The notes under the pieces: model-generated | What the model saw: the letters and a program-made list of their open reading frames with translations, nothing else | What the model was told of the DNA's origin: nothing | Database searches by the model: none | Position numbers and translations under genes: made by a program | Origin: Spirochaetaceae bacterium | GTDB lineage: Bacteria; Spirochaetota; Spirochaetia; DSM-2461 | Assembly: GCA_051531975.1 (NCBI GenBank) | Contig: JAOPTT010000003.1 | Span: forward strand, 128,001-192,000 | DNA: 64,000 bases | Direction of reading: 5' to 3' | Shown here: in pieces, positions 16,948-25,280 of the stretch | How positions within the stretch are numbered: the stretch's first letter is position 1 | Layout: each line of letters opens with the position of its first letter

Positions 16948-19900
16948 ATGAAAGGATCAGATGATTCAGATCAAAAAGACATTATAGACCAGAAATTACA
17001 GACTCAGATTTTTGATATTATGGATGAGATGTTTCAAGTTATTGAGCTAATATATGACGATAATGGAAAAGCTATTGATTATATTCATCTTCAGGTTAAT
17101 CCCGCTTTTGAAAAGCTTGTTCAAATGAAAAAAGAGGATTTAATAGGGAAAAGAGTTAAAGATATATTTGGAATTATCGAAGATTATTGGATAGAGATTT
17201 ATGAAAGGGTTGAGTCTACAGGAGTTACAGAAAATTTTGAAAATTATGGTGCTGAACTTGATAAATATTACGCAATTAAGGCATGGAAAATAGGTGAGAA
17301 TAAAGTAGCGGTTCTGTTCACAGAAATTACAGAGAAATATAAAATGGAATATGCATTAAAAGAGAGTGAAGAACGAATTAGGTTATTTACTCAAAACGTC
17401 CCAGATTATTTGTTACAAATCGATAGAATGGGGAAAATTGAATATATTAATAAAACGTTTGAAGGTTTAACACAAAAAGATGTTATAGGAACTTCAGTAT
17501 ATTCTTGGATCCCTGATGAGTCTTTGCAAAAGTTTAAAGATAAAGTAGAAAAAGTTTTTATAAATGGATGTAATGAAATTATTGAATATCCGTCAGAAGG
17601 AGCAAAAGGGGAACCTGTATGGTTTGAATCCCAAATAGGACCACTTGAAAATTCTGGTATCATAAATCATGTGATAATTGTCGCAAGGGATATAACAGAA
17701 AAGAAAAATGCAGTAGAAGCCTCTTTAAACAGTGATAAACGATTTAAAATTGTTGCAGAATCAGCAGGGAAATGGGTTTGGGAAATTAATGCAGAAGGTT
17801 TATATACTTATTCAAGTCCTTTGGTTAAGCAAATATTAGGTTATACACCAGAAGAAATAGTCGGTAAAAAACATTTCTTTGATTTCTTCCAGAAGGATGT
17901 TAAAGAGCAATTAAAAGAAGAAGCAATTAATGCTTTTAAGCAAAAGCTTATTATTAAGGATTTTGAAAGTCCTAAAGAACATAAAAATGGTGAAATAGTT
18001 ATTCTAAATACATCAGGCAGTCCTATTCTTGATAAAGATGGTAATTTAATAGGATATCTCGGTGCTGATAGTGATATTACTGAGCGTAAAATTGCAGAAA
18101 ATGAAATTAGATATCAGGCATCTTTAATTGAGCAAATGGATACAGCTATAATAACAATAGGCTTTGATAATAAAATACTTTCCTGGAATGAACATGCCAA
18201 AAGTCTTTATGGGTGGAGTAAGGAAGAAGTTATAGGAAAAGATATTATTGAACTATTAGGCGCTGAAGAATCGAAAGAGGAAACCTTAAAATCATTTGTT
18301 GATCTGAATAGAGATGGGCATTGGGAAGGAGATTATTTAGCTAATAAAAAAGATGGTACTCGAGTTCCAATCCATGTTATAAATTCATATTTAAAAGATT
18401 CAAATGGAGAAAATATTGGATTTATAGGACTGAGTACTGATATTACATATCGTATTAAGGCAGAGATTAAATTAAATCAAAGTACTCAATTACTTGAAAC
18501 ATCTCAAGCAATAGCAAAGCTTGGTGGATGGGAACTGGATATTGTGACAAATAACTTATTCTGGACTGCAGAGACCTATCGTATTTACGATACTTCTACA
18601 GAAGAGTTCAACCCAACAGTGGATGCAGGTTTTGGCTATTTCTTACCTGAGTCTCGTCGTATTATTTCTGATGCATTGAAGGCAGCAGTAGAGAATGCAA
18701 AAGGTTACGACCTTATACTAGAAACCCTGACTACAAAAGGCCGACGAATTGACATACGTACTACATGCGAAGTAATACTACTCGATGGAAAACCCATAAG
18801 GTTAACTGGGATTTTTCAGGATATAACTGAACTTAAGCAAGTAGAAAACAAAATACTTGCTGCTGAAGAAACGGCAAGATTAAATGAACAATATTACAAA
18901 AATATCATCAACAAAATGGGAGACCCAGTTTTTGTAAAAGACAACCAAAGCAGGTTATTACTGGTTAATGATGCTTTTTGTAAAATATTTGATCTCCCAA
19001 GGGATTCAATAATAGGAAAAACACTTGCCGAAGATGTTCCACCAAATGAACGGGAGCATTTTTTGAGAGTCGATAAACAGGTGATACAAGATGGAAAAGA
19101 TAATATTAGTGAGGAGTCGCTTACTGTAAGAAACGGTAAAACTCGTACAATTTCCACAAGAAAGTCGCGTTTTACTGATAATAGTGGTAAAAACTTTTTA
19201 GTAGGAGTTATTCGCGATATCACTGAGATACAAAAATCAGAAGAAGCACTAAGAGAAAGTGAAGAGAATCTTTCAACTATACTCAATTACATTGGGGAAG
19301 CAGTAATTGCAACAGATGGTGAAGGGAAAATTACTCAAATGAACCCTGTTGCACAAAAGTTAACCGGATGGGCACTTAAAGATGCAAAAACAACTTTACT
19401 ACCAAATGTTTTAAAAATCACGAATGCAATCTCGGGAGAAACGATTCCAAATCCCGTAGAAGGGATGATCACCAGCGGGACCATTTATAAACTAACAAAC
19501 AATACCATTCTCACCTCCCGAGATGGTGTAAAGAGACAAATTGCTGCTAGGGGTGCACCTATTAAAAACTCAACAGGTGAAATTGTTGGTGTGGTCCTGG
19601 TATTTCGGGATGTAACAGAACAATACAAACTGGAGGAGCAGTTCAGACAATCTCAAAAAATGGATGCAATCGGTCAACTTGCCGGTGGTGTTGCCCACGA
19701 TTTTAACAATATGTTAACAGGTATAATGGGATGTGCAGAGATAATTTCCAGCAAAGTCGCCGAGGATGAAGCATTAAGCCAGTTATCTAATTTGATTTTG
19801 GATACATCGATGCAGGCTGCAGAACTAACCAAGAAATTATTATCATTTTCCCATAAAGCAAAATCAGTTAACGAGATATTTGATATTCATGAATCTATTA

Positions 19901-20769
19901 CAAAAACCTTATCTATGCTGAAAAGAAGTATAAACAGATCAATTATTATTAAATCTAATTTAGATGCCCCCAATTCATATATTAATGGGGATCAATCTTT
20001 AATACAAAATTCACTTTTGAATTTAGGTTTAAATGCAAGGGATGTTATGCCTAAAGGGGGCACATTAACATTTACAACTAGGAATGTGATTTTTGAACAG
20101 AAAGACATAAATTCTAACTCAGATATTGCCCCTGGTAATTATATAGAAATAGAGGTGGAGGATACAGGTTGTGGAATGACACAGGAAGTACAAAGCCGCC
20201 TTTTTGAACCGTTTTTCACAACAAAACCAATGGGGAAAGGAACCGGCTTAGGACTCTCTACTGTCTACAATACAATTAAGGGGAATGATGGCAATATCTC
20301 TATAAGTAGTGAAATAAATCGTGGCTCTATCTTTAAAATTTTATTACCAATAATTTTGGATATAAATGAAAGCAAAGATATTGTGGCAAAAAAAACTGTA
20401 CCTGGGATTGGCACTATTTTAGTCGTCGACGATGAAAATATTGTACGATTGGTCCTTGGTCAAATGTTAAGTGAACTAGGATACAATGTCCTGTTTGCAG
20501 AAGAAGGTGAAGAGTGTATTAAAATCTATAAAGAAAAAGGAAATTCTATTGATATGATTATTTTAGATATGGTTATGCCAAAGATGAATGGCCGAGATGT
20601 CTTTTACGCATTAAAAGAAATCAATCCTGATATAAAAGTCTTAATTTGCTCTGGGTTTTCTAAGGATATAAATATCGAAAAATTAATTGAGGATGGGGTG
20701 TCAGCTTTTATGCAGAAACCATATAAAAAAATTGATATATCAATGAAAATCAAAGAGATCTTATCTTAG
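16948..20769 (+). CDS. Cytoplasmic multi-PAS hybrid histidine kinase with C-terminal receiver
   Basis: About 7 PAS/PAC units ending in DITE-like motifs; H-box AHDFNNML; N-box NARD; DTGCGM; FTTK...GTGLGL; receiver with ILDMVMP and KP. Confidence 0.93.
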   Translation: MKGSDDSDQKDIIDQKLQTQIFDIMDEMFQVIELIYDDNGKAIDYIHLQVNPAFEKLVQMKKEDLIGKRVKDIFGIIEDYWIEIYERVESTGVTENFENYGAELDKYYAIKAWKIGENKVAVLFTEITEKYKMEYALKESEERIRLFTQNVPDYLLQIDRMGKIEYINKTFEGLTQKDVIGTSVYSWIPDESLQKFKDKVEKVFINGCNEIIEYPSEGAKGEPVWFESQIGPLENSGIINHVIIVARDITEKKNAVEASLNSDKRFKIVAESAGKWVWEINAEGLYTYSSPLVKQILGYTPEEIVGKKHFFDFFQKDVKEQLKEEAINAFKQKLIIKDFESPKEHKNGEIVILNTSGSPILDKDGNLIGYLGADSDITERKIAENEIRYQASLIEQMDTAIITIGFDNKILSWNEHAKSLYGWSKEEVIGKDIIELLGAEESKEETLKSFVDLNRDGHWEGDYLANKKDGTRVPIHVINSYLKDSNGENIGFIGLSTDITYRIKAEIKLNQSTQLLETSQAIAKLGGWELDIVTNNLFWTAETYRIYDTSTEEFNPTVDAGFGYFLPESRRIISDALKAAVENAKGYDLILETLTTKGRRIDIRTTCEVILLDGKPIRLTGIFQDITELKQVENKILAAEETARLNEQYYKNIINKMGDPVFVKDNQSRLLLVNDAFCKIFDLPRDSIIGKTLAEDVPPNEREHFLRVDKQVIQDGKDNISEESLTVRNGKTRTISTRKSRFTDNSGKNFLVGVIRDITEIQKSEEALRESEENLSTILNYIGEAVIATDGEGKITQMNPVAQKLTGWALKDAKTTLLPNVLKITNAISGETIPNPVEGMITSGTIYKLTNNTILTSRDGVKRQIAARGAPIKNSTGEIVGVVLVFRDVTEQYKLEEQFRQSQKMDAIGQLAGGVAHDFNNMLTGIMGCAEIISSKVAEDEALSQLSNLILDTSMQAAELTKKLLSFSHKAKSVNEIFDIHESITKTLSMLKRSINRSIIIKSNLDAPNSYINGDQSLIQNSLLNLGLNARDVMPKGGTLTFTTRNVIFEQKDINSNSDIAPGNYIEIEVEDTGCGMTQEVQSRLFEPFFTTKPMGKGTGLGLSTVYNTIKGNDGNISISSEINRGSIFKILLPIILDINESKDIVAKKTVPGIGTILVVDDENIVRLVLGQMLSELGYNVLFAEEGEECIKIYKEKGNSIDMIILDMVMPKMNGRDVFYALKEINPDIKVLICSGFSKDINIEKLIEDGVSAFMQKPYKKIDISMKIKEILS

Positions 20770-20829: not shown

Positions 20830-21750
20830 TCACTTTATGCCTATCCATTTAATAATGTCTCTTTTAAGTATATTAAATTCAAAAATATTCCTTGGACCAT
20901 GCTCCATTTTTCTATAATACTCAAATGTAAAATTCTCTTTATTATATTGGTCTTCAATTATTTTTGTCGACTCGACAGGACAAGACCAATCTCTCTCTCC
21001 ATGTATAAATAAAACAGGGATATTTATTTCTTTAATATACTCAATTGGATTATAGTCGAAAAAGCTACTCCATCTGGTATAAGGGTGACCTAAAAAAAAT
21101 TCTGTAATTGAATCTGGGTTTTCTTTTATATCTTTATAAACTTTTTCAGTTTTTACTAACATGGATCTATATTCTTTTGGCATTTTTACAGAAGAAGTTG
21201 CTAAAGTTTTAAACTCATCTAACTGAGTCATACCACCACCACCTGCAAGAATTATAATCTTATCAATTTGATCCTTAACTTTTAAATTATTATAAATAAG
21301 TGGTACTAAAGCACCACCATCAGATGAACCCATAAGTATAACTTCAGAAAACTTATTGTTAGATAAATAACTGTTTATGCTTTTAGTATAACTATCAACA
21401 AAGCCTTGGACTGTTGAGTTTTTTAAAGCTTTAGGGTCAGAATTGTACTCTTGTCCAGCTTCATAAAAGAGCTTCTCTGGTACAAGAACATTAAAGTTCT
21501 TTCTAAACTGGTTAATTACGATACTAGCAGAACTTACTGTTTCCCAAGAACCATCATCATCCTTAGTTCCTAATACAGATTTGTAACCACTACCTTCAAT
21601 ATATATTAATAACTTATCCGATCTGCTATTAGGGAAGACATAGTAGTTTCCATCTGTTTTATATACTAACATTCCTTTATATTTTACTGTTGAGCATGAA
21701 CTCAATAAAACACCTACAATTAATAAACATATTACATTTTTAAATTTCAC
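20830..21750 (-). CDS. Alpha/beta-hydrolase lipoprotein
   Basis: Lipobox LLSSC; GSSDGG nucleophile, HGERD acid and MEHG histidine; likely GTG start at 21750 after GGAG. Confidence 0.75.
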   Translation of the reverse strand: MKFKNVICLLIVGVLLSSCSTVKYKGMLVYKTDGNYYVFPNSRSDKLLIYIEGSGYKSVLGTKDDDGSWETVSSASIVINQFRKNFNVLVPEKLFYEAGQEYNSDPKALKNSTVQGFVDSYTKSINSYLSNNKFSEVILMGSSDGGALVPLIYNNLKVKDQIDKIIILAGGGGMTQLDEFKTLATSSVKMPKEYRSMLVKTEKVYKDIKENPDSITEFFLGHPYTRWSSFFDYNPIEYIKEINIPVLFIHGERDWSCPVESTKIIEDQYNKENFTFEYYRKMEHGPRNIFEFNILKRDIIKWIGIK

Positions 21751-21853
21751 TTTATTCTCCAATAAAAAATATTATAGAGAATATAAATTGCTAATAAATT
21801 ACAATCTGGTTACATATAAGTAATACATTAACTTTATTAGAATATAGAGGGAT

Positions 21854-22222
21854 TTATTGGTTAATAATTTTATTAATCTTACCTGTTAATACATCCAAAT
21901 CAAATATTGGTTTAAGTATAATGTTATTATTTGTTAAACCTAAAGAAGTCAATGTTTGCGGAATAGAATAATTATAATCTCCAGTGTGTATTAGAAATTT
22001 CATTTCTGGTTTAATCTTATTAATTTCTATTATTAGTTTATCACCTTCCATATCTGGAATATGAAGATCAACAATAACAAGGTCGATATCACTTTTTGTA
22101 GATATGGATAAACCTTCTGATGCAGTTGAGGAACAGTATATTTTAAAACCTTCATCTTCCAATAACATTTCTAATGATATACGAATGGATTCATCATCAT
22201 CAATTATTAAAATATGTTTCAT
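21854..22222 (-). CDS. Single-domain response regulator (receiver only)
   Basis: IIDDD, VDLHIP (phospho-Asp), HTG and KP motifs; no output domain. Confidence 0.9.
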   Translation of the reverse strand: MKHILIIDDDESIRISLEMLLEDEGFKIYCSSTASEGLSISTKSDIDLVIVDLHIPDMEGDKLIIEINKIKPEMKFLIHTGDYNYSIPQTLTSLGLTNNNIILKPIFDLDVLTGKINKIINQ

Positions 22223-22323
22223 TTTGTCCCCCTAAATGTATTATAAACTAAAACAAACAATTATTATCATTAATTTTTAATTAATTTACATTTAATTCAC
22301 AGGGGGACTATTTTAATACAATA

Positions 22324-24264
22324 TTAAAACTGAGATTTATGTTTTATAAAAAAATCTACTCTAGGCTCAAGCCATTTAAGTTTATGGTCACTAGGGTTTT
22401 CTGTAAAATAGTAGATATCTTTAAATAGATAATCCCAATTAAAGAAGTCATCGTTAACATTTAGATAATCCTTAACCAGCTCTGTTCCTGTAGGGGCAAC
22501 AGGATGTAAAAGAAATATAGCGGTTCTTAACATATGGAAAATATCTATAAGTACCAATTTTATATCATCTTCATTTATATCTTTTACCATTCTTTTAGCC
22601 CACTCTTTACTTATGCCTCTAATATATTTTTCTATATTAAACATAGCTTTATGGAATTCGTTATTATAAACCCTTCTTTCCCACTCTAATATTATTCTTT
22701 TTGAACCCTCTAAAACTTCACTTGATATTTCCCCATATGGTAAAACTCCATCAAAGTATTTTTGAGTTGTGTAAAAACAGGAACGACAGATTCTATTTAA
22801 AACATTACTTAATAGATTACCCTCTTTTAAAACCGGATCTGCATCTTTCTCTTTTGCTTCTTTATTAAAAGGCTTAGGGTTAAAATTTATTGGTCGCATA
22901 CCAAGACCTAGGGCAAAAAAATGAGCTCGCAACTGGTCTGGGGTATAATGCTCTAATAAGTCCAGAGCCATTATTGGTTTTATCTCGCCAGAAGATGAAG
23001 CTTTTCGATTACCTTGAAGAAGATGACAATTGGCTATTAATTTTGGAAATTGTAACTTTCGACCTTCTAAGCCCATAAATAAAGACATCTCAGCAAGACT
23101 ATAAAAAAAGATATTATCCTCTCCCATAAACTGATAAACAGTAGAATCTTCTGAAGACCACCAATCCTCAACCTTATTTGAACTAAGACTATGAGACTCT
23201 AGATAACATTTTGTAAATGAAATTGGTGCCCATAAAGATTCAGGCCAAACCCAAAATGTTAAATCCTTTAATCCATCAATCTCTGGGACATTTATACTCC
23301 ACTCTATATTTCCTGTTATTCTAAATGGAGTAAGGGTTTTTCCTGCTCTAAAACGTAACCCCTCCCTGTTTAATATTTCTACTGCTAACTCTCTTTGTTC
23401 TAGTGATGTGAAAATTAAAGATATTGATTTTTTATCTTCCTTTGTTTCATGGCCTGGAAGTTTACCTTTAATTAGTTCTAGTGCTTCTTTACTTTCGTTT
23501 TTAATATAAACAACAGGAGGTTCTAAGAACTCTTTAATTGTAGAAATTACATGTCGCCTACTATCAGATCTATTTTCTATTTTATTAACCCACTGGATTA
23601 ATTCGTTTTTAAAGTTATTAGGATCAATATACCAGTTAGTAACCTCCTTCATTTCTGGAGGTTCCCCAGATAATATACTTGTTGGATTAATTAAATCTTT
23701 TGGATCATAGGGGTGCCCCATTTCACACTCATCAGCATATGCCTTTTCTGACTTACAACCTGGCACAGGACACATCCCTATAACCTGTCGCCCATTTAAA
23801 AATGAGTTTAATTTTTTGTCAAAGAATTGAGCAGCTGAACGTTTATGTAGGTGCCCATTTTGATATAACTCAGTTAAAACATCAGAGCTTAATTGTTTAT
23901 GTATCTCCCCAGGTCTTCCAAAAGCTGAAGTATAATAGGATTCTGTAGAAATGTTAAAAGCTTCTAAAGCTACTTTCTGATTATTATGATTAAACAAAAT
24001 AAACTCTTCTAATGAACCACTGAATTCACCGCTTTTTATCTGTTTTTTGTAATATTCAATAATTGGAGAGCCGTAACAATCTGTTCCAGAGACAAAAATT
24101 ACATTATCTTTACCTAATCTATCCTGGAGAAACCTTTTATATATGTCTGCATGTACAAAGACACCTCCAATGTGCCCTAAATGTAAACTTTTATTGCCAT
24201 ATGGCATCCCAGCTGTAACTACTGCTCTAATAGGAAATTCTGGTCTAGAATTATCTACTCTCAT
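22324..24264 (-). CDS. Class I aminoacyl-tRNA-synthetase-like protein, divergent methionyl-tRNA synthetase paralogue
   Basis: TAGMPYGN...HLGH (HIGH motif), SGTD, Zn-knuckle CPVPGC...CEMGH, FWVW, GEDNIFF, KASSS in place of KMSKS, helical anticodon domain; AGGAG RBS. Symbol withheld because its specificity is doubtful. Confidence 0.85.
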   Translation of the reverse strand: MRVDNSRPEFPIRAVVTAGMPYGNKSLHLGHIGGVFVHADIYKRFLQDRLGKDNVIFVSGTDCYGSPIIEYYKKQIKSGEFSGSLEEFILFNHNNQKVALEAFNISTESYYTSAFGRPGEIHKQLSSDVLTELYQNGHLHKRSAAQFFDKKLNSFLNGRQVIGMCPVPGCKSEKAYADECEMGHPYDPKDLINPTSILSGEPPEMKEVTNWYIDPNNFKNELIQWVNKIENRSDSRRHVISTIKEFLEPPVVYIKNESKEALELIKGKLPGHETKEDKKSISLIFTSLEQRELAVEILNREGLRFRAGKTLTPFRITGNIEWSINVPEIDGLKDLTFWVWPESLWAPISFTKCYLESHSLSSNKVEDWWSSEDSTVYQFMGEDNIFFYSLAEMSLFMGLEGRKLQFPKLIANCHLLQGNRKASSSGEIKPIMALDLLEHYTPDQLRAHFFALGLGMRPINFNPKPFNKEAKEKDADPVLKEGNLLSNVLNRICRSCFYTTQKYFDGVLPYGEISSEVLEGSKRIILEWERRVYNNEFHKAMFNIEKYIRGISKEWAKRMVKDINEDDIKLVLIDIFHMLRTAIFLLHPVAPTGTELVKDYLNVNDDFFNWDYLFKDIYYFTENPSDHKLKWLEPRVDFFIKHKSQF

Positions 24265-24281
24265 ATTATTCTCCTAATTAT

Positions 24282-24316
24282 AAAATAAAAAAGCCCCACT
24301 TTAATAAGTGGGGCTT
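24282..24316 (-). terminator. Attenuator terminator upstream of the MetRS-like gene
   Basis: Minus strand AAGCCCCACTT-ATTA-AAGTGGGGCTT (11-bp stem) followed by TTTTATTTT, ending about 6 nt before the RBS. Confidence 0.92.
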
Positions 24317-24333
24317 CTAAAATAAACAATGTT

Positions 24334-24405
24334 TTAAGCAGCCCCATAATAAAGTTGTTGTTGTTGAGTTTGTTGCTGTTGTTCCTGTCTACTTAAATTA
24401 TTCAT
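24334..24405 (-). CDS. Gln-rich attenuator leader peptide MNNLSRQEQQQQTQQQQLYYGAA
   Basis: ATG AAT AAT TTA AGT AGA CAG GAA CAA CAG CAA CAA ACT CAA CAA CAA CAA CTT TAT TAT GGG GCT GCT TAA. Its 3' TGGGGCT is complementary to the terminator 5' arm AGCCCCA. Confidence 0.85.
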   Translation of the reverse strand: MNNLSRQEQQQQTQQQQLYYGAA

Positions 24406-24412
24406 TAACTGA

Positions 24413-24441
24413 AGTATTACATTAAAAATTTAGAAAGTCAA
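24413..24441 (-). promoter_or_regulatory. Putative sigma70 promoter of the leader/MetRS-like transcript
   Basis: Minus strand TTGACT-17 nt-AATACT with an extended TG, 7 nt before the leader ATG; no SD, so essentially leaderless. Confidence 0.6.
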
Positions 24442-24476
24442 ACATAGTAAAGGGATTGTAATTGAAAGGTTTTAAG

Positions 24477-25280
24477 CTAAATCTTCCTAACATTTACCAA
24501 TTCAAGATATTCTGAAATCCACATTTTATATGCAGGTGGAATTACTTCCTGATCGAATTTAATAATTATTGAAAGTAGGCTTTCATCTTCGTTGACTACC
24601 TCGATTCTTTCTATATGTCCTATCATCTCACCAATACCTTCAAGTCCTTTGTATTTCATGATTAACATAGCACTACTATTTCTTAATATTTTTGATGTGC
24701 ATCCAACAAGAATAACTTTAGCACTAAACATCGAAAGTTCAGTTAATATGCATCTTTTACCACAGCCAGAAACAAAAAGAAAGTTCTGATGGTTTTTACT
24801 TTTTGAGGAGCTGTAGAGGTCTTTATTTAAAATAAATCGCTCTTCTGCTCGTTTATGTAAATTTAACTGTTTTATTATATGGGAGCCTAGAATGTTTATA
24901 AAATCGTCAGGAACTCTCTTTGAAAAATCAACTAAAAAGAAATATAGGTCTTTTTTTTCTTGATTATACTCAGTTATTTCTGAAATTTTTGAATGTATAT
25001 AAAAACAGATCTCTTTATGTTCATATTTATCATTGAAAGAAAACATTATAGATATTTTCTGTTGTTTTCTTTTTATGTAATTTAACTGATCGATTGATAG
25101 ATTTATCAGAATCTTTGCACCACTTAAGGATGAAGAATATATTATGCATGAGAGCTTCATCCCACTACATTTTAGTGTTATATCAGCAGGACGTAGCCCT
25201 AATTCTTTAATAACACTCTGATTAAAAGTAATACTATGATCTTTATGATCATCATAGATCTGATTTAGTCTTCTATCCAT
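24477..25280 (-). CDS. PilZ-domain protein, spirochaete PlzA-like
   Basis: 267-aa two-barrel layout with CIIYSSSL in the N-half and RAEER (RxxxR) followed by ELSMFS (degenerate D/NxSxxG). Confidence 0.65.
   Translation of the reverse strand: MDRRLNQIYDDHKDHSITFNQSVIKELGLRPADITLKCSGMKLSCIIYSSSLSGAKILINLSIDQLNYIKRKQQKISIMFSFNDKYEHKEICFYIHSKISEITEYNQEKKDLYFFLVDFSKRVPDDFINILGSHIIKQLNLHKRAEERFILNKDLYSSSKSKNHQNFLFVSGCGKRCILTELSMFSAKVILVGCTSKILRNSSAMLIMKYKGLEGIGEMIGHIERIEVVNEDESLLSIIIKFDQEVIPPAYKMWISEYLELVNVRKI

Follow-up and report, generated by a model that had tools for sequence, protein, structure and literature searches.

The open reading frame (ORF) at 22324..24264 (minus strand, ATG start) of the DNA analysed here encodes a protein of 646 amino acids that resembles methionyl-tRNA synthetase (MetRS); the window, a stretch of 64,000 nucleotides, comes from a Spirochaetaceae bacterium and corresponds to C3:128001-192000 of an assembly of 5.46 Mb that is rated 98.5% complete. 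The gene is likely to encode a glutaminyl-tRNA synthetase (GlnRS) that descended from MetRS and not from glutamyl-tRNA synthetase (GluRS), and this proposed MetRS-type GlnRS is referred to below as the class I synthetase of the 'KASSS' family. Support for GlnRS activity is indirect and comes from T-boxes specific for glutamine upstream of homologues, a Gln-rich leader in the window and the complementary distribution of the gene and glnS. Textbooks describe two routes to Gln-tRNA-Gln, which are a GluRS-derived GlnRS and a GluRS together with the amidotransferase GatCAB. On balance, it seems probable that the KASSS family constitutes a third, MetRS-derived route, which would have displaced GlnRS and sometimes GatCAB across many Clostridia and would have reached Spirochaetota and other phyla by transfer, as a spare GlnRS under T-box or attenuator control.

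A preliminary description of this DNA had proposed a Gln-related MetRS derivative that does not act on methionine, and this view is supported by the Gln specifiers in 19 of 19 readable T-boxes, the presence of a separate metG and the complementarity with GlnRS. The Gln-sensing leader that it mentioned is real, with nine Gln among 23 codons and an antiterminator/terminator pair. It had further suggested that the protein supplies, edits or rescues Gln-tRNA; a role in supply agrees with the Gln T-boxes and with carriers that mostly lack GlnRS, whereas editing or rescue finds no support, as no editing domain was found on the protein. The checks that it named include whether the genome has a metG of its own, which of glnS and gatCAB it contains, and where the protein falls in a tree with MetRS. 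A canonical metG is located on contig C2 (788.5 bits with NF001100, cut-off 587; 593.9 bits with TIGR00398), and the objection that the protein could be the only MetRS therefore fails; since this canonical metG lies elsewhere in the genome, the 646-amino-acid protein is a paralogue and not the MetRS of the host cell. A canonical glnS is present on contig C14 (699.6 bits with TIGR00440, cut-off 425.8), gatB was not found in the host genome, and the assembly contains one tRNA-Gln, whose anticodon is UUG. In the tree, the family is monophyletic and separate from 21 canonical MetRS representatives.

Glutamine T-boxes and the glutamine leader

Among 18 related genome loci, six possess a T-box directly upstream of the homologue and on the strand of the gene (Rfam), and the specifiers, read from the alignment to the Rfam consensus, are CAA in four and CAG in two cases. 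In addition, 80 metagenome loci were searched with an nhmmer profile of seven T-boxes, six of them from the family itself, and 14 of these loci proved to have a T-box ahead of the gene; six of the 14 also pass the Rfam gathering score. Here, the specifier is CAG in six and CAA in seven loci, and one T-box is cut off. All 19 readable T-boxes, two of which had their specifiers read by eye and two of which (L104 and L106) are near-identical, thus carry a Gln specifier (CAA or CAG), and AUG is found in none of them. Because the nhmmer profile is biased towards Gln T-boxes, Rfam was run on 76 of the 80 metagenome loci (all but L080-L083), and no further T-boxes were detected there on the strand of the gene. 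The reading of specifiers was controlled with locus L024, in which a T-box with the specifier AAG (Lys) precedes a class II synthetase of the Lys/Asp/Asn type around 2 kb upstream of the paralogue. Gln is among the rarest T-box specifiers according to the accessible part of TBDB, and the accessible part of PMC2494555 reports no T-box upstream of amidotransferase genes.

Some of these loci contain additional RNA elements. Two harbor a strong divergent T-box on the opposite strand (L036:801-1027, minus strand, 134 bits; L042:594-817, minus strand, 129 bits), which reads ACC (Thr) and precedes a divergent ORF running off the locus. In L044, a Clostridiales-2 RNA (RF02937, 80 bits; 1276-1356) separates the Gln T-box from the paralogue; the distance from T-box to gene start is 250-340 nt in several other loci.

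The window copy has no T-box; instead, a Gln-rich leader ORF lies between the upstream gene and the synthetase ORF. The following elements were assigned to this region, in the order of transcription:

24413..24441, minus strand: promoter-like site, TTGACT, 17 nt, TG plus AATACT, which ends 7 nt before the leader ATG (consensus match only)
24334..24405, minus strand: leader ORF MNNLSRQEQQQQTQQQQLYYGAA followed by a stop codon, 23 codons, nine Gln (seven CAA, two CAG), from translation
24309..24346, minus strand: antiterminator hairpin, -13.3 kcal/mol, from folding of the nascent RNA with ribosome masks
24279..24318, minus strand: intrinsic terminator with a 13-bp stem, a 4-nt loop and a T tract, -20.4 kcal/mol, upstream of the Shine-Dalgarno sequence
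24271..24275, minus strand: Shine-Dalgarno sequence AGGAG, 6 nt ahead of the ATG at 24264

The 5' strand of the antiterminator overlaps the last leader codons and the stop codon, and its 3' strand doubles as the terminator's 5' arm; this terminator is the only terminator-like site within 21700-24600. When the antiterminator was folded as nascent RNA minus the 3' arm of the terminator, it stayed intact with a ribosome mask at Gln codons 9-15, dropped to -2.2 with the mask at Gln 17 and to 0 with the mask at the stop codon. The features expected of an attenuator, which are a Gln-rich short ORF, an intrinsic terminator ahead of the coding region and a competing hairpin that a ribosome can block, are hence all found in silico. 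Gln-rich ORFs of this kind are rare: genome-wide, 214 of 64,561 small ATG ORFs contain at least six Gln. Promoter-like sites in the leader region are not in excess over shuffled sequence, and a search of the leader with Rfam gave no family at threshold, with matches at chance level to Thr_leader (25.3 versus 55), the PyrG leader and the L10 leader. Judged by its sequence, the window leader follows classical attenuator logic, set to Gln-tRNA-Gln; both translation of the leader and attenuation itself are predictions.

Distribution relative to GlnRS and GatCAB

The paralogue, glnS and gatB were searched in the same 301 genomes of one Clostridia order around the small-genome carrier G045 (order sample), and some absences were deduced from a genome missing among the matches listed. 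On this basis, glnS is lacking in 16 of the 22 carriers, but in only nine of the 279 non-carriers. Neither glnS nor gatB was found in 13 genomes, ten of which are carriers. Each of these 13 has exactly one gene of the GluRS/GlnRS family; 12 of these genes were fetched, and all of them encode a bacterial GluRS (nine over the gltX cut-off and three just under it). AsnRS is present in 12 of the 13 genomes, including all ten carriers. The only gatA over the cut-off among the 13 belongs to the non-carrier G080, whose gatB was probably lost at a contig end, and none was found in the ten carriers. This leaves 12 genomes of the order sample without GlnRS, GatA or GatB, and the paralogue is present in ten of them.

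A second comparison was made at the level of the class, where 200 genomes were scored (a further one was left unscored) and 23 of them are carriers; 20 new carriers were set against 20 non-carriers (class sample):

20 new carriers: glnS in 1, gatB in 16, neither in 3
20 non-carriers: glnS in 14, gatB in 12, neither in 1

Taken over both samples, GatCAB is absent from at least 13 of 42 carriers. Ten further carriers were reached through their loci. All ten have a canonical metG, and five of them lack both Gln routes (G003, G043, G044, G045 and G047). Among the five small-genome carriers in this set, four are without both routes and have nevertheless kept the canonical metG, and G046 alone has gatB. 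The paralogue is retained in genomes of 0.8-1.0 Mb.

These distributions bear on a different reading, in which tRNA-Gln is loaded with glutamate, as by a non-discriminating GluRS2, and an amidotransferase then completes Gln-tRNA-Gln. Such an enzyme would fit the regulatory elements equally well, as T-boxes and the leader peptide sense the charging state of tRNA-Gln and not which amino acid is attached, and gatB is indeed present in 16 of 20 class-sample and 12 of 22 order-sample carriers. However, in ten order-sample carriers neither gatB nor a gatA above the cut-off was found, although they possess AsnRS and a single GluRS, and gatB is likewise missing from three more carriers of the class sample and from the host genome. 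Glu-tRNA-Gln without an amidotransferase would mistranslate every Gln codon. We therefore consider a glutamate-loading enzyme very unlikely and continue with the proposal of a MetRS-derived GlnRS.

Three loci of individual carriers deserve mention. In G003, in which no glnS or gatB was found, an amidase-family gene (PF01425, 326 bits; L013:1772-3202, minus strand) is located divergently upstream of the paralogue. The copy of G046 (L020:4001-5956) has VASSS and not KASSS, so that the first Lys is lost too. In G005 (Clostridium intestinale), the paralogue (C11:247971-249374) has a GluRS-like gene nearby, and the canonical glnS (C11:238492-240060) is located around 8 kb away.

The MetRS scaffold, the amino-acid pocket and the family

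In a Pfam scan, the only domains of the 646-amino-acid protein are PF00133 and PF09334, the class I MetRS catalytic domain (220.4 bits, gathering score 20.1), whose match falls into two stretches with an insert between them. The protein scores far below the curated cut-offs for the metG equivalogs NF001100 (235.3 bits versus a cut-off of 587) and TIGR00398 (184.6 bits versus 336.35) of NCBIfam, and the Pfam and NCBIfam scans gave no match to PF00749 or glnS. Its closest solved structures are all MetRS, first that of P. abyssi (1rqg, 1.6e-38) and then the E. coli entries; with a family profile, the match to 1rqg reaches 9e-75, and homology is clear across the entire length. The protein was aligned with E. 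coli MetRS and with the host genome's own MetRS, and invariance was scored over 44 aligned family members:

24172..24183, minus strand: HIGH motif kept as HLGH, residues 28-31; H28, G30 and H31 invariant in the 44 members
24070..24084, minus strand: TDCYG, residues 61-65, in which the counterpart of E. coli D52 is still Asp and Y takes the place of E. coli H54; T61 and D62 invariant
23713..23772, minus strand: single metal knuckle CPxxGC...YADEC..GH, CPVPGCKSEKAYADECEMGH, residues 165-184; C165, C170, C180 and H184 invariant
23329..23517, minus strand: family-specific insert of around 63 amino acids, residues 250-312, located where the connective-peptide domain ends and ahead of PFRITGN, from the alignment
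23224..23247, minus strand: WPESLWAP, residues 340-347, a remodelled wall of the amino-acid pocket in place of E. coli W253-Y260; W340, P341, E342, S343, L344 and P347 invariant
23089..23124, minus strand: GEDNIFFYSLAE, residues 381-392; E. coli H301 is replaced by Y (Y388 invariant) and W305 by E, from alignments
22990..23004, minus strand: KASSS replacing KMSKS, residues 421-425, second Lys lost; K421, S424 and S425 invariant
22600..22797, minus strand: anticodon-binding helices; N490, R494 and W555 correspond to E. coli MetRS N391, R395 and W461, from the alignment
22327..22377, minus strand: conserved C-terminal tail KWLEPRVDFFIKHKSQF, with no OB or dimerisation domain after it

The MetRS scaffold and every motif listed in the preliminary description were recovered in the translation. 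The insertion that it had placed before PFRIT and estimated at around 55 amino acids measures around 63 (residues 250-312), and its statement that a C-terminal OB or dimerisation domain is missing holds, the short conserved tail being the end of the protein. The insert is conserved in 33 aligned family copies and is not present in E. coli MetRS or the host's own MetRS; a profile search against solved structures found no relative, the top match being a de novo designed protein (E = 1.8). The knuckle at residues 165-184 is predicted to bind a metal, with His probably acting as the fourth ligand.

The substitutions at Met-binding or catalytic positions proposed earlier (H301 to Y, W305 to E, loss of R233 and Y260, KMSKS to KASSS) are all borne out by the alignment. 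In the 646-amino-acid protein, E. coli H301 is replaced by Y, W305 by E and R233 by G, and the position of W305 is occupied by E or Q in most of the 24 tabulated family rows. Y260 becomes F when the three-residue PES insertion is placed after W253, as in the gapped HMMER alignment to E. coli MetRS. H301, W305 and Y260 of E. coli MetRS are presumably contacts of the Met side chain; Tyr and Glu/Gln in place of Met-contact residues could form hydrogen bonds with a carboxamide group. Asn at the position of E. coli I297 was considered as a Gln determinant and rejected, as true MetRS usually carry Asn there too, which corrects the implied pocket reading in this respect. KASSS need not indicate a dead enzyme, because human cytoplasmic TyrRS has KMSSS, as stated in the accessible part of PMC2813244. 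Catalysis with KASSS thus appears possible in principle.

In the anticodon-binding domain, the equivalents of N391 and R395 show no variation among the 44 aligned members, at least 90% of which also have the W461 equivalent. We take these three residues to have roles in anticodon recognition in E. coli MetRS. Because the anticodon domain is kept together with the N391, R395 and W461 equivalents, the protein looks tRNA-dependent; its specificity for glutamine and tRNA-Gln is suggested by the sequence and its context.

It could be argued that the protein is a second true MetRS, for instance a drug-resistant or stress isozyme, and that the link to Gln is incidental. Indeed, its best Pfam and structure matches are all MetRS, the MetRS anticodon residues are kept, and a tRNA-Met(CAU) gene is found around 850-900 nt downstream in four related small-genome loci. 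However, an AUG specifier occurs in none of the 19 readable T-boxes, the presumed Met contacts H301, W305 and Y260 are replaced family-wide, the scores are far under every metG equivalog cut-off, and a canonical metG is also present in every carrier checked. Furthermore, the family forms one clade that is separated by long branches from the 21 MetRS representatives. A second MetRS is, therefore, highly improbable. The tRNA with the CAU anticodon, which may be read as tRNA-Met or as an Ile2 precursor, is located 3' of the paralogue at L016:6872-6948, L018:6826-6902, L021:3108-3184 and L026:6799-6875 in these four Clostridia.

Some synthetase paralogues modify tRNAs; GluQRS, for example, is a GluRS paralogue that glutamylates queuosine in tRNA-Asp. 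By this precedent, the KASSS protein might modify or otherwise mark tRNA-Gln and not aminoacylate its 3' end. GluQRS models are also among the NCBIfam matches of GluRS, and the anticodon-binding residues are conserved. A modifier, however, would not replace GlnRS where no other route exists, and control by T-boxes and a leader peptide responds to charging, which makes this explanation barely plausible.

The homologue search covered 5.8 billion proteins and yielded many full-length relatives of 53-68% identity from Spirochaetales, Clostridia, other Bacillota and Oligoflexia. Relatives with a source name are annotated as 'class I tRNA ligase family protein' or 'methionyl-tRNA synthetase', and in the ESM Atlas, only clusters named 'class I tRNA ligase family protein' were obtained. 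A quick maximum-likelihood tree placed 24 family members in a single, long-stemmed clade (SH-aLRT 100), apart from the 21 canonical MetRS representatives. The gene is patchy near home and occurs in five of 38 genomes of the host order and three of 331 genomes of the host phylum, the host being counted in both. Its neighbors vary by lineage and include GH3, a sigma factor, ABC transporters and a response regulator; among 32 neighbors scanned, no partner gene was conserved across lineages, and no cupin or monooxygenase was found. The protein itself has no cupin domain. A sister group (P0148, P0173, P0185 and P0203; around 640-680 amino acids) shares GMPY, WPESL(I)API and DNxYFY..MQ with the KASSS family; its members keep KMSKS and the H54 equivalent and are without the R395 and W461 equivalents. 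This group may represent an earlier form of the same specificity change, and the Atlas cluster nearest to it is commonest in Bdellovibrionota.

Conserved features and neighborhood also bear on the idea that the protein is a tRNA-independent ligase for a Gln-like substrate, comparable to cupin-linked hydrazine synthetases or MshC; the gene would then be controlled by Gln as part of Gln metabolism. MetRS paralogues acting as ligases outside translation have been published, as far as the accessible part of PMC2922099 describes them. In addition, KMSKS is degenerate, the R233 equivalent is lost, and the sister group to which P0148 belongs has no R395 and W461 equivalents. The KASSS protein, however, has no cupin domain and no conserved neighbor across lineages, its entire anticodon-binding domain is conserved together with the key residues, and genomes as small as 0.8-1.0 Mb retain the gene. 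Moreover, a ligase leaves the absence of GlnRS in carriers unexplained. We give this reading very little probability and retain that of a GlnRS descended from MetRS.

In the window, a receiver-only response regulator of 122 amino acids is encoded 101 nt 3' of the synthetase gene (21854-22222, minus strand); no terminator-like site lies between the two genes, which may be co-transcribed. A PilZN3-domain protein adjoins the synthetase region (24477-25280, minus strand), and an ORF of 1273 amino acids with a receiver-like C-terminus is found at 16948-20769 (plus strand, domains assigned by eye). Neither of them has an evident link to the synthetase.

Proposed mechanism, its weight and comparison with known systems

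We propose that the enzyme retained the class I core (HIGH and the Asp that anchors the alpha-amino group) together with a zinc knuckle and an anticodon domain of the MetRS type, and that its pocket was rebuilt to accept glutamine by the changes of H301 to Tyr, W305 to Glu/Gln and Y260 to Phe and by the insertion of PES after W253; glutamine is, in our own assessment, near methionine in size. The module of around 63 amino acids adjoins the connective-peptide domain, where the acceptor arm of the tRNA would sit. The enzyme would form Gln-AMP and then pass Gln directly to tRNA-Gln. In reduced Clostridia without GlnRS and GatCAB, the paralogue would be the sole source of Gln-tRNA-Gln and thus essential. 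In the host spirochaete, it would serve as a second GlnRS beside the canonical one and would be made only when Gln-tRNA-Gln is short. In the proposed control, a transcript starting near 24406 would carry the leader ORF of 23 codons, nine of which are Gln codons. A ribosome that reaches the stop codon would cover the 5' strand of the antiterminator, so that the terminator (24318-24289) folds and transcription stops short of the gene; a ribosome stalled on the Gln codons would allow the antiterminator to form and the gene to be transcribed. In Clostridia with T-box control, the paralogue would likewise be a spare GlnRS, which is induced by uncharged tRNA-Gln. A spare GlnRS might be useful if it bound Gln more tightly or resisted a GlnRS inhibitor.

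Several observations weigh against this proposal. The host genome has a full GlnRS, and a second enzyme is not required there. A known route (glnS or gatB) is kept by 12 of 22 order-sample and 17 of 20 class-sample carriers, and all such proportions are descriptive and not a test, as the samples contain metagenome-assembled genomes, completeness figures are missing for most genomes, and kin are not independent. Conversely, G209 and G330 of the order sample and G689 of the class control have neither glnS nor gatB nor the paralogue; these may be incomplete assemblies or may use yet another solution. The tRNA-Gln of carrier-only genomes is ordinary (U1-A72, G73, G2-C71, G3-C70), with ordinary identity elements in the three carrier-only genomes as well as in the one GlnRS genome compared; two more carrier-only genomes gave no tRNA-Gln match to the search pattern, and one control copy is cut at a contig end. 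The MetRS residues that contact the anticodon in this CAU reader are kept although tRNA-Gln has UUG or CUG, where a change would be expected. The protein has neither the second Lys of KMSKS nor a counterpart of E. coli R233, and the alignment of WPESLWAP is ambiguous, since it is gapped against E. coli MetRS and ungapped against P. abyssi MetRS, in which case Y260 corresponds to P. The specifiers were read by their position in the Rfam alignment and not with a dedicated tool, and most of the T-boxes behind the nhmmer profile were Gln T-boxes. A Gln leader is seen with the window copy only: none was found in 100 other homologue loci, three of which belong to the same spirochaete family. The sole ORF that passed the Gln-leader filter, in L102, has five scattered Gln, and the opposite-strand control also gave one. 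Finally, the leader ORF has no Shine-Dalgarno sequence; the promoter-like site 7 nt before its ATG suggests that the ORF may be leaderless, with the transcript starting near 24406, which would explain this absence.

If the proposal is true, a MetRS-derived GlnRS would represent a new synthetase type and a third route to Gln-tRNA-Gln, and it would explain how Gln codons are translated in gut Clostridia of 0.8-1 Mb that are without both known routes. It would also correct the widespread annotation as 'methionyl-tRNA synthetase' or 'class I tRNA ligase family protein'. Furthermore, it would provide a natural case of a synthetase that switched both its amino acid and its tRNA, with relevance for genetic-code engineering and the history of Gln in the code, and would follow class I and class II LysRS as the second instance of two unrelated synthetase lineages serving a single amino acid. 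The claim is directly testable by standard charging assays. In the literature searched, which did not extend to Vitreschak's 2008 T-box survey or the TBDB supplementary tables, no description of the KASSS family or of a MetRS-type GlnRS was found.

The window leader shares with the trp, his, leu and thr leader attenuators a short, codon-packed ORF, the end of which overlaps an antiterminator that competes with an intrinsic terminator. In contrast to these systems, it would sense Gln and control a synthetase and not a biosynthetic operon; it also differs from known attenuators by having no Shine-Dalgarno sequence and by being seen in one genome only. Canonical GlnRS (TIGR00440, PF00749) catalyzes the reaction that is proposed here for the KASSS family, the direct formation of Gln-tRNA-Gln. 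It is GluRS-derived, whereas the KASSS family is MetRS-derived, and homology between them is limited to the class I fold. The two are largely mutually exclusive across Clostridia; both are present in the host genome. Bacteria that have no GlnRS are known to obtain Gln-tRNA-Gln through GatCAB and a non-discriminating GluRS, the second route in the two-route view that the accessible part of PMC2494555 presents. The GatCAB route is indirect and needs three amidotransferase subunits, whereas the KASSS enzyme is proposed to act directly. The cupin-linked hydrazine synthetases, the 'paralogous MetRS' of PMC2922099, are likewise MetRS paralogues with altered amino-acid specificity; they occur with a cupin and a lysine N6-monooxygenase, by fusion or linkage, and act tRNA-free, whereas the KASSS family has neither partner and an intact anticodon domain. 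With MetRS of the E. coli and P. abyssi type (PF09334; PDB 1rqg, 1qqt), the family has in common the HIGH motif, the Asp52 equivalent, the connective-peptide knuckle and the helical anticodon domain with the N391, R395 and W461 equivalents. It differs from MetRS by KASSS, the rebuilt pocket with its PES insertion, the 63-amino-acid insert, a single knuckle with a His ligand and a conserved short tail in place of an OB domain; furthermore, it is linked to control by tRNA-Gln and not tRNA-Met, and it is found beside a true metG in every carrier checked.

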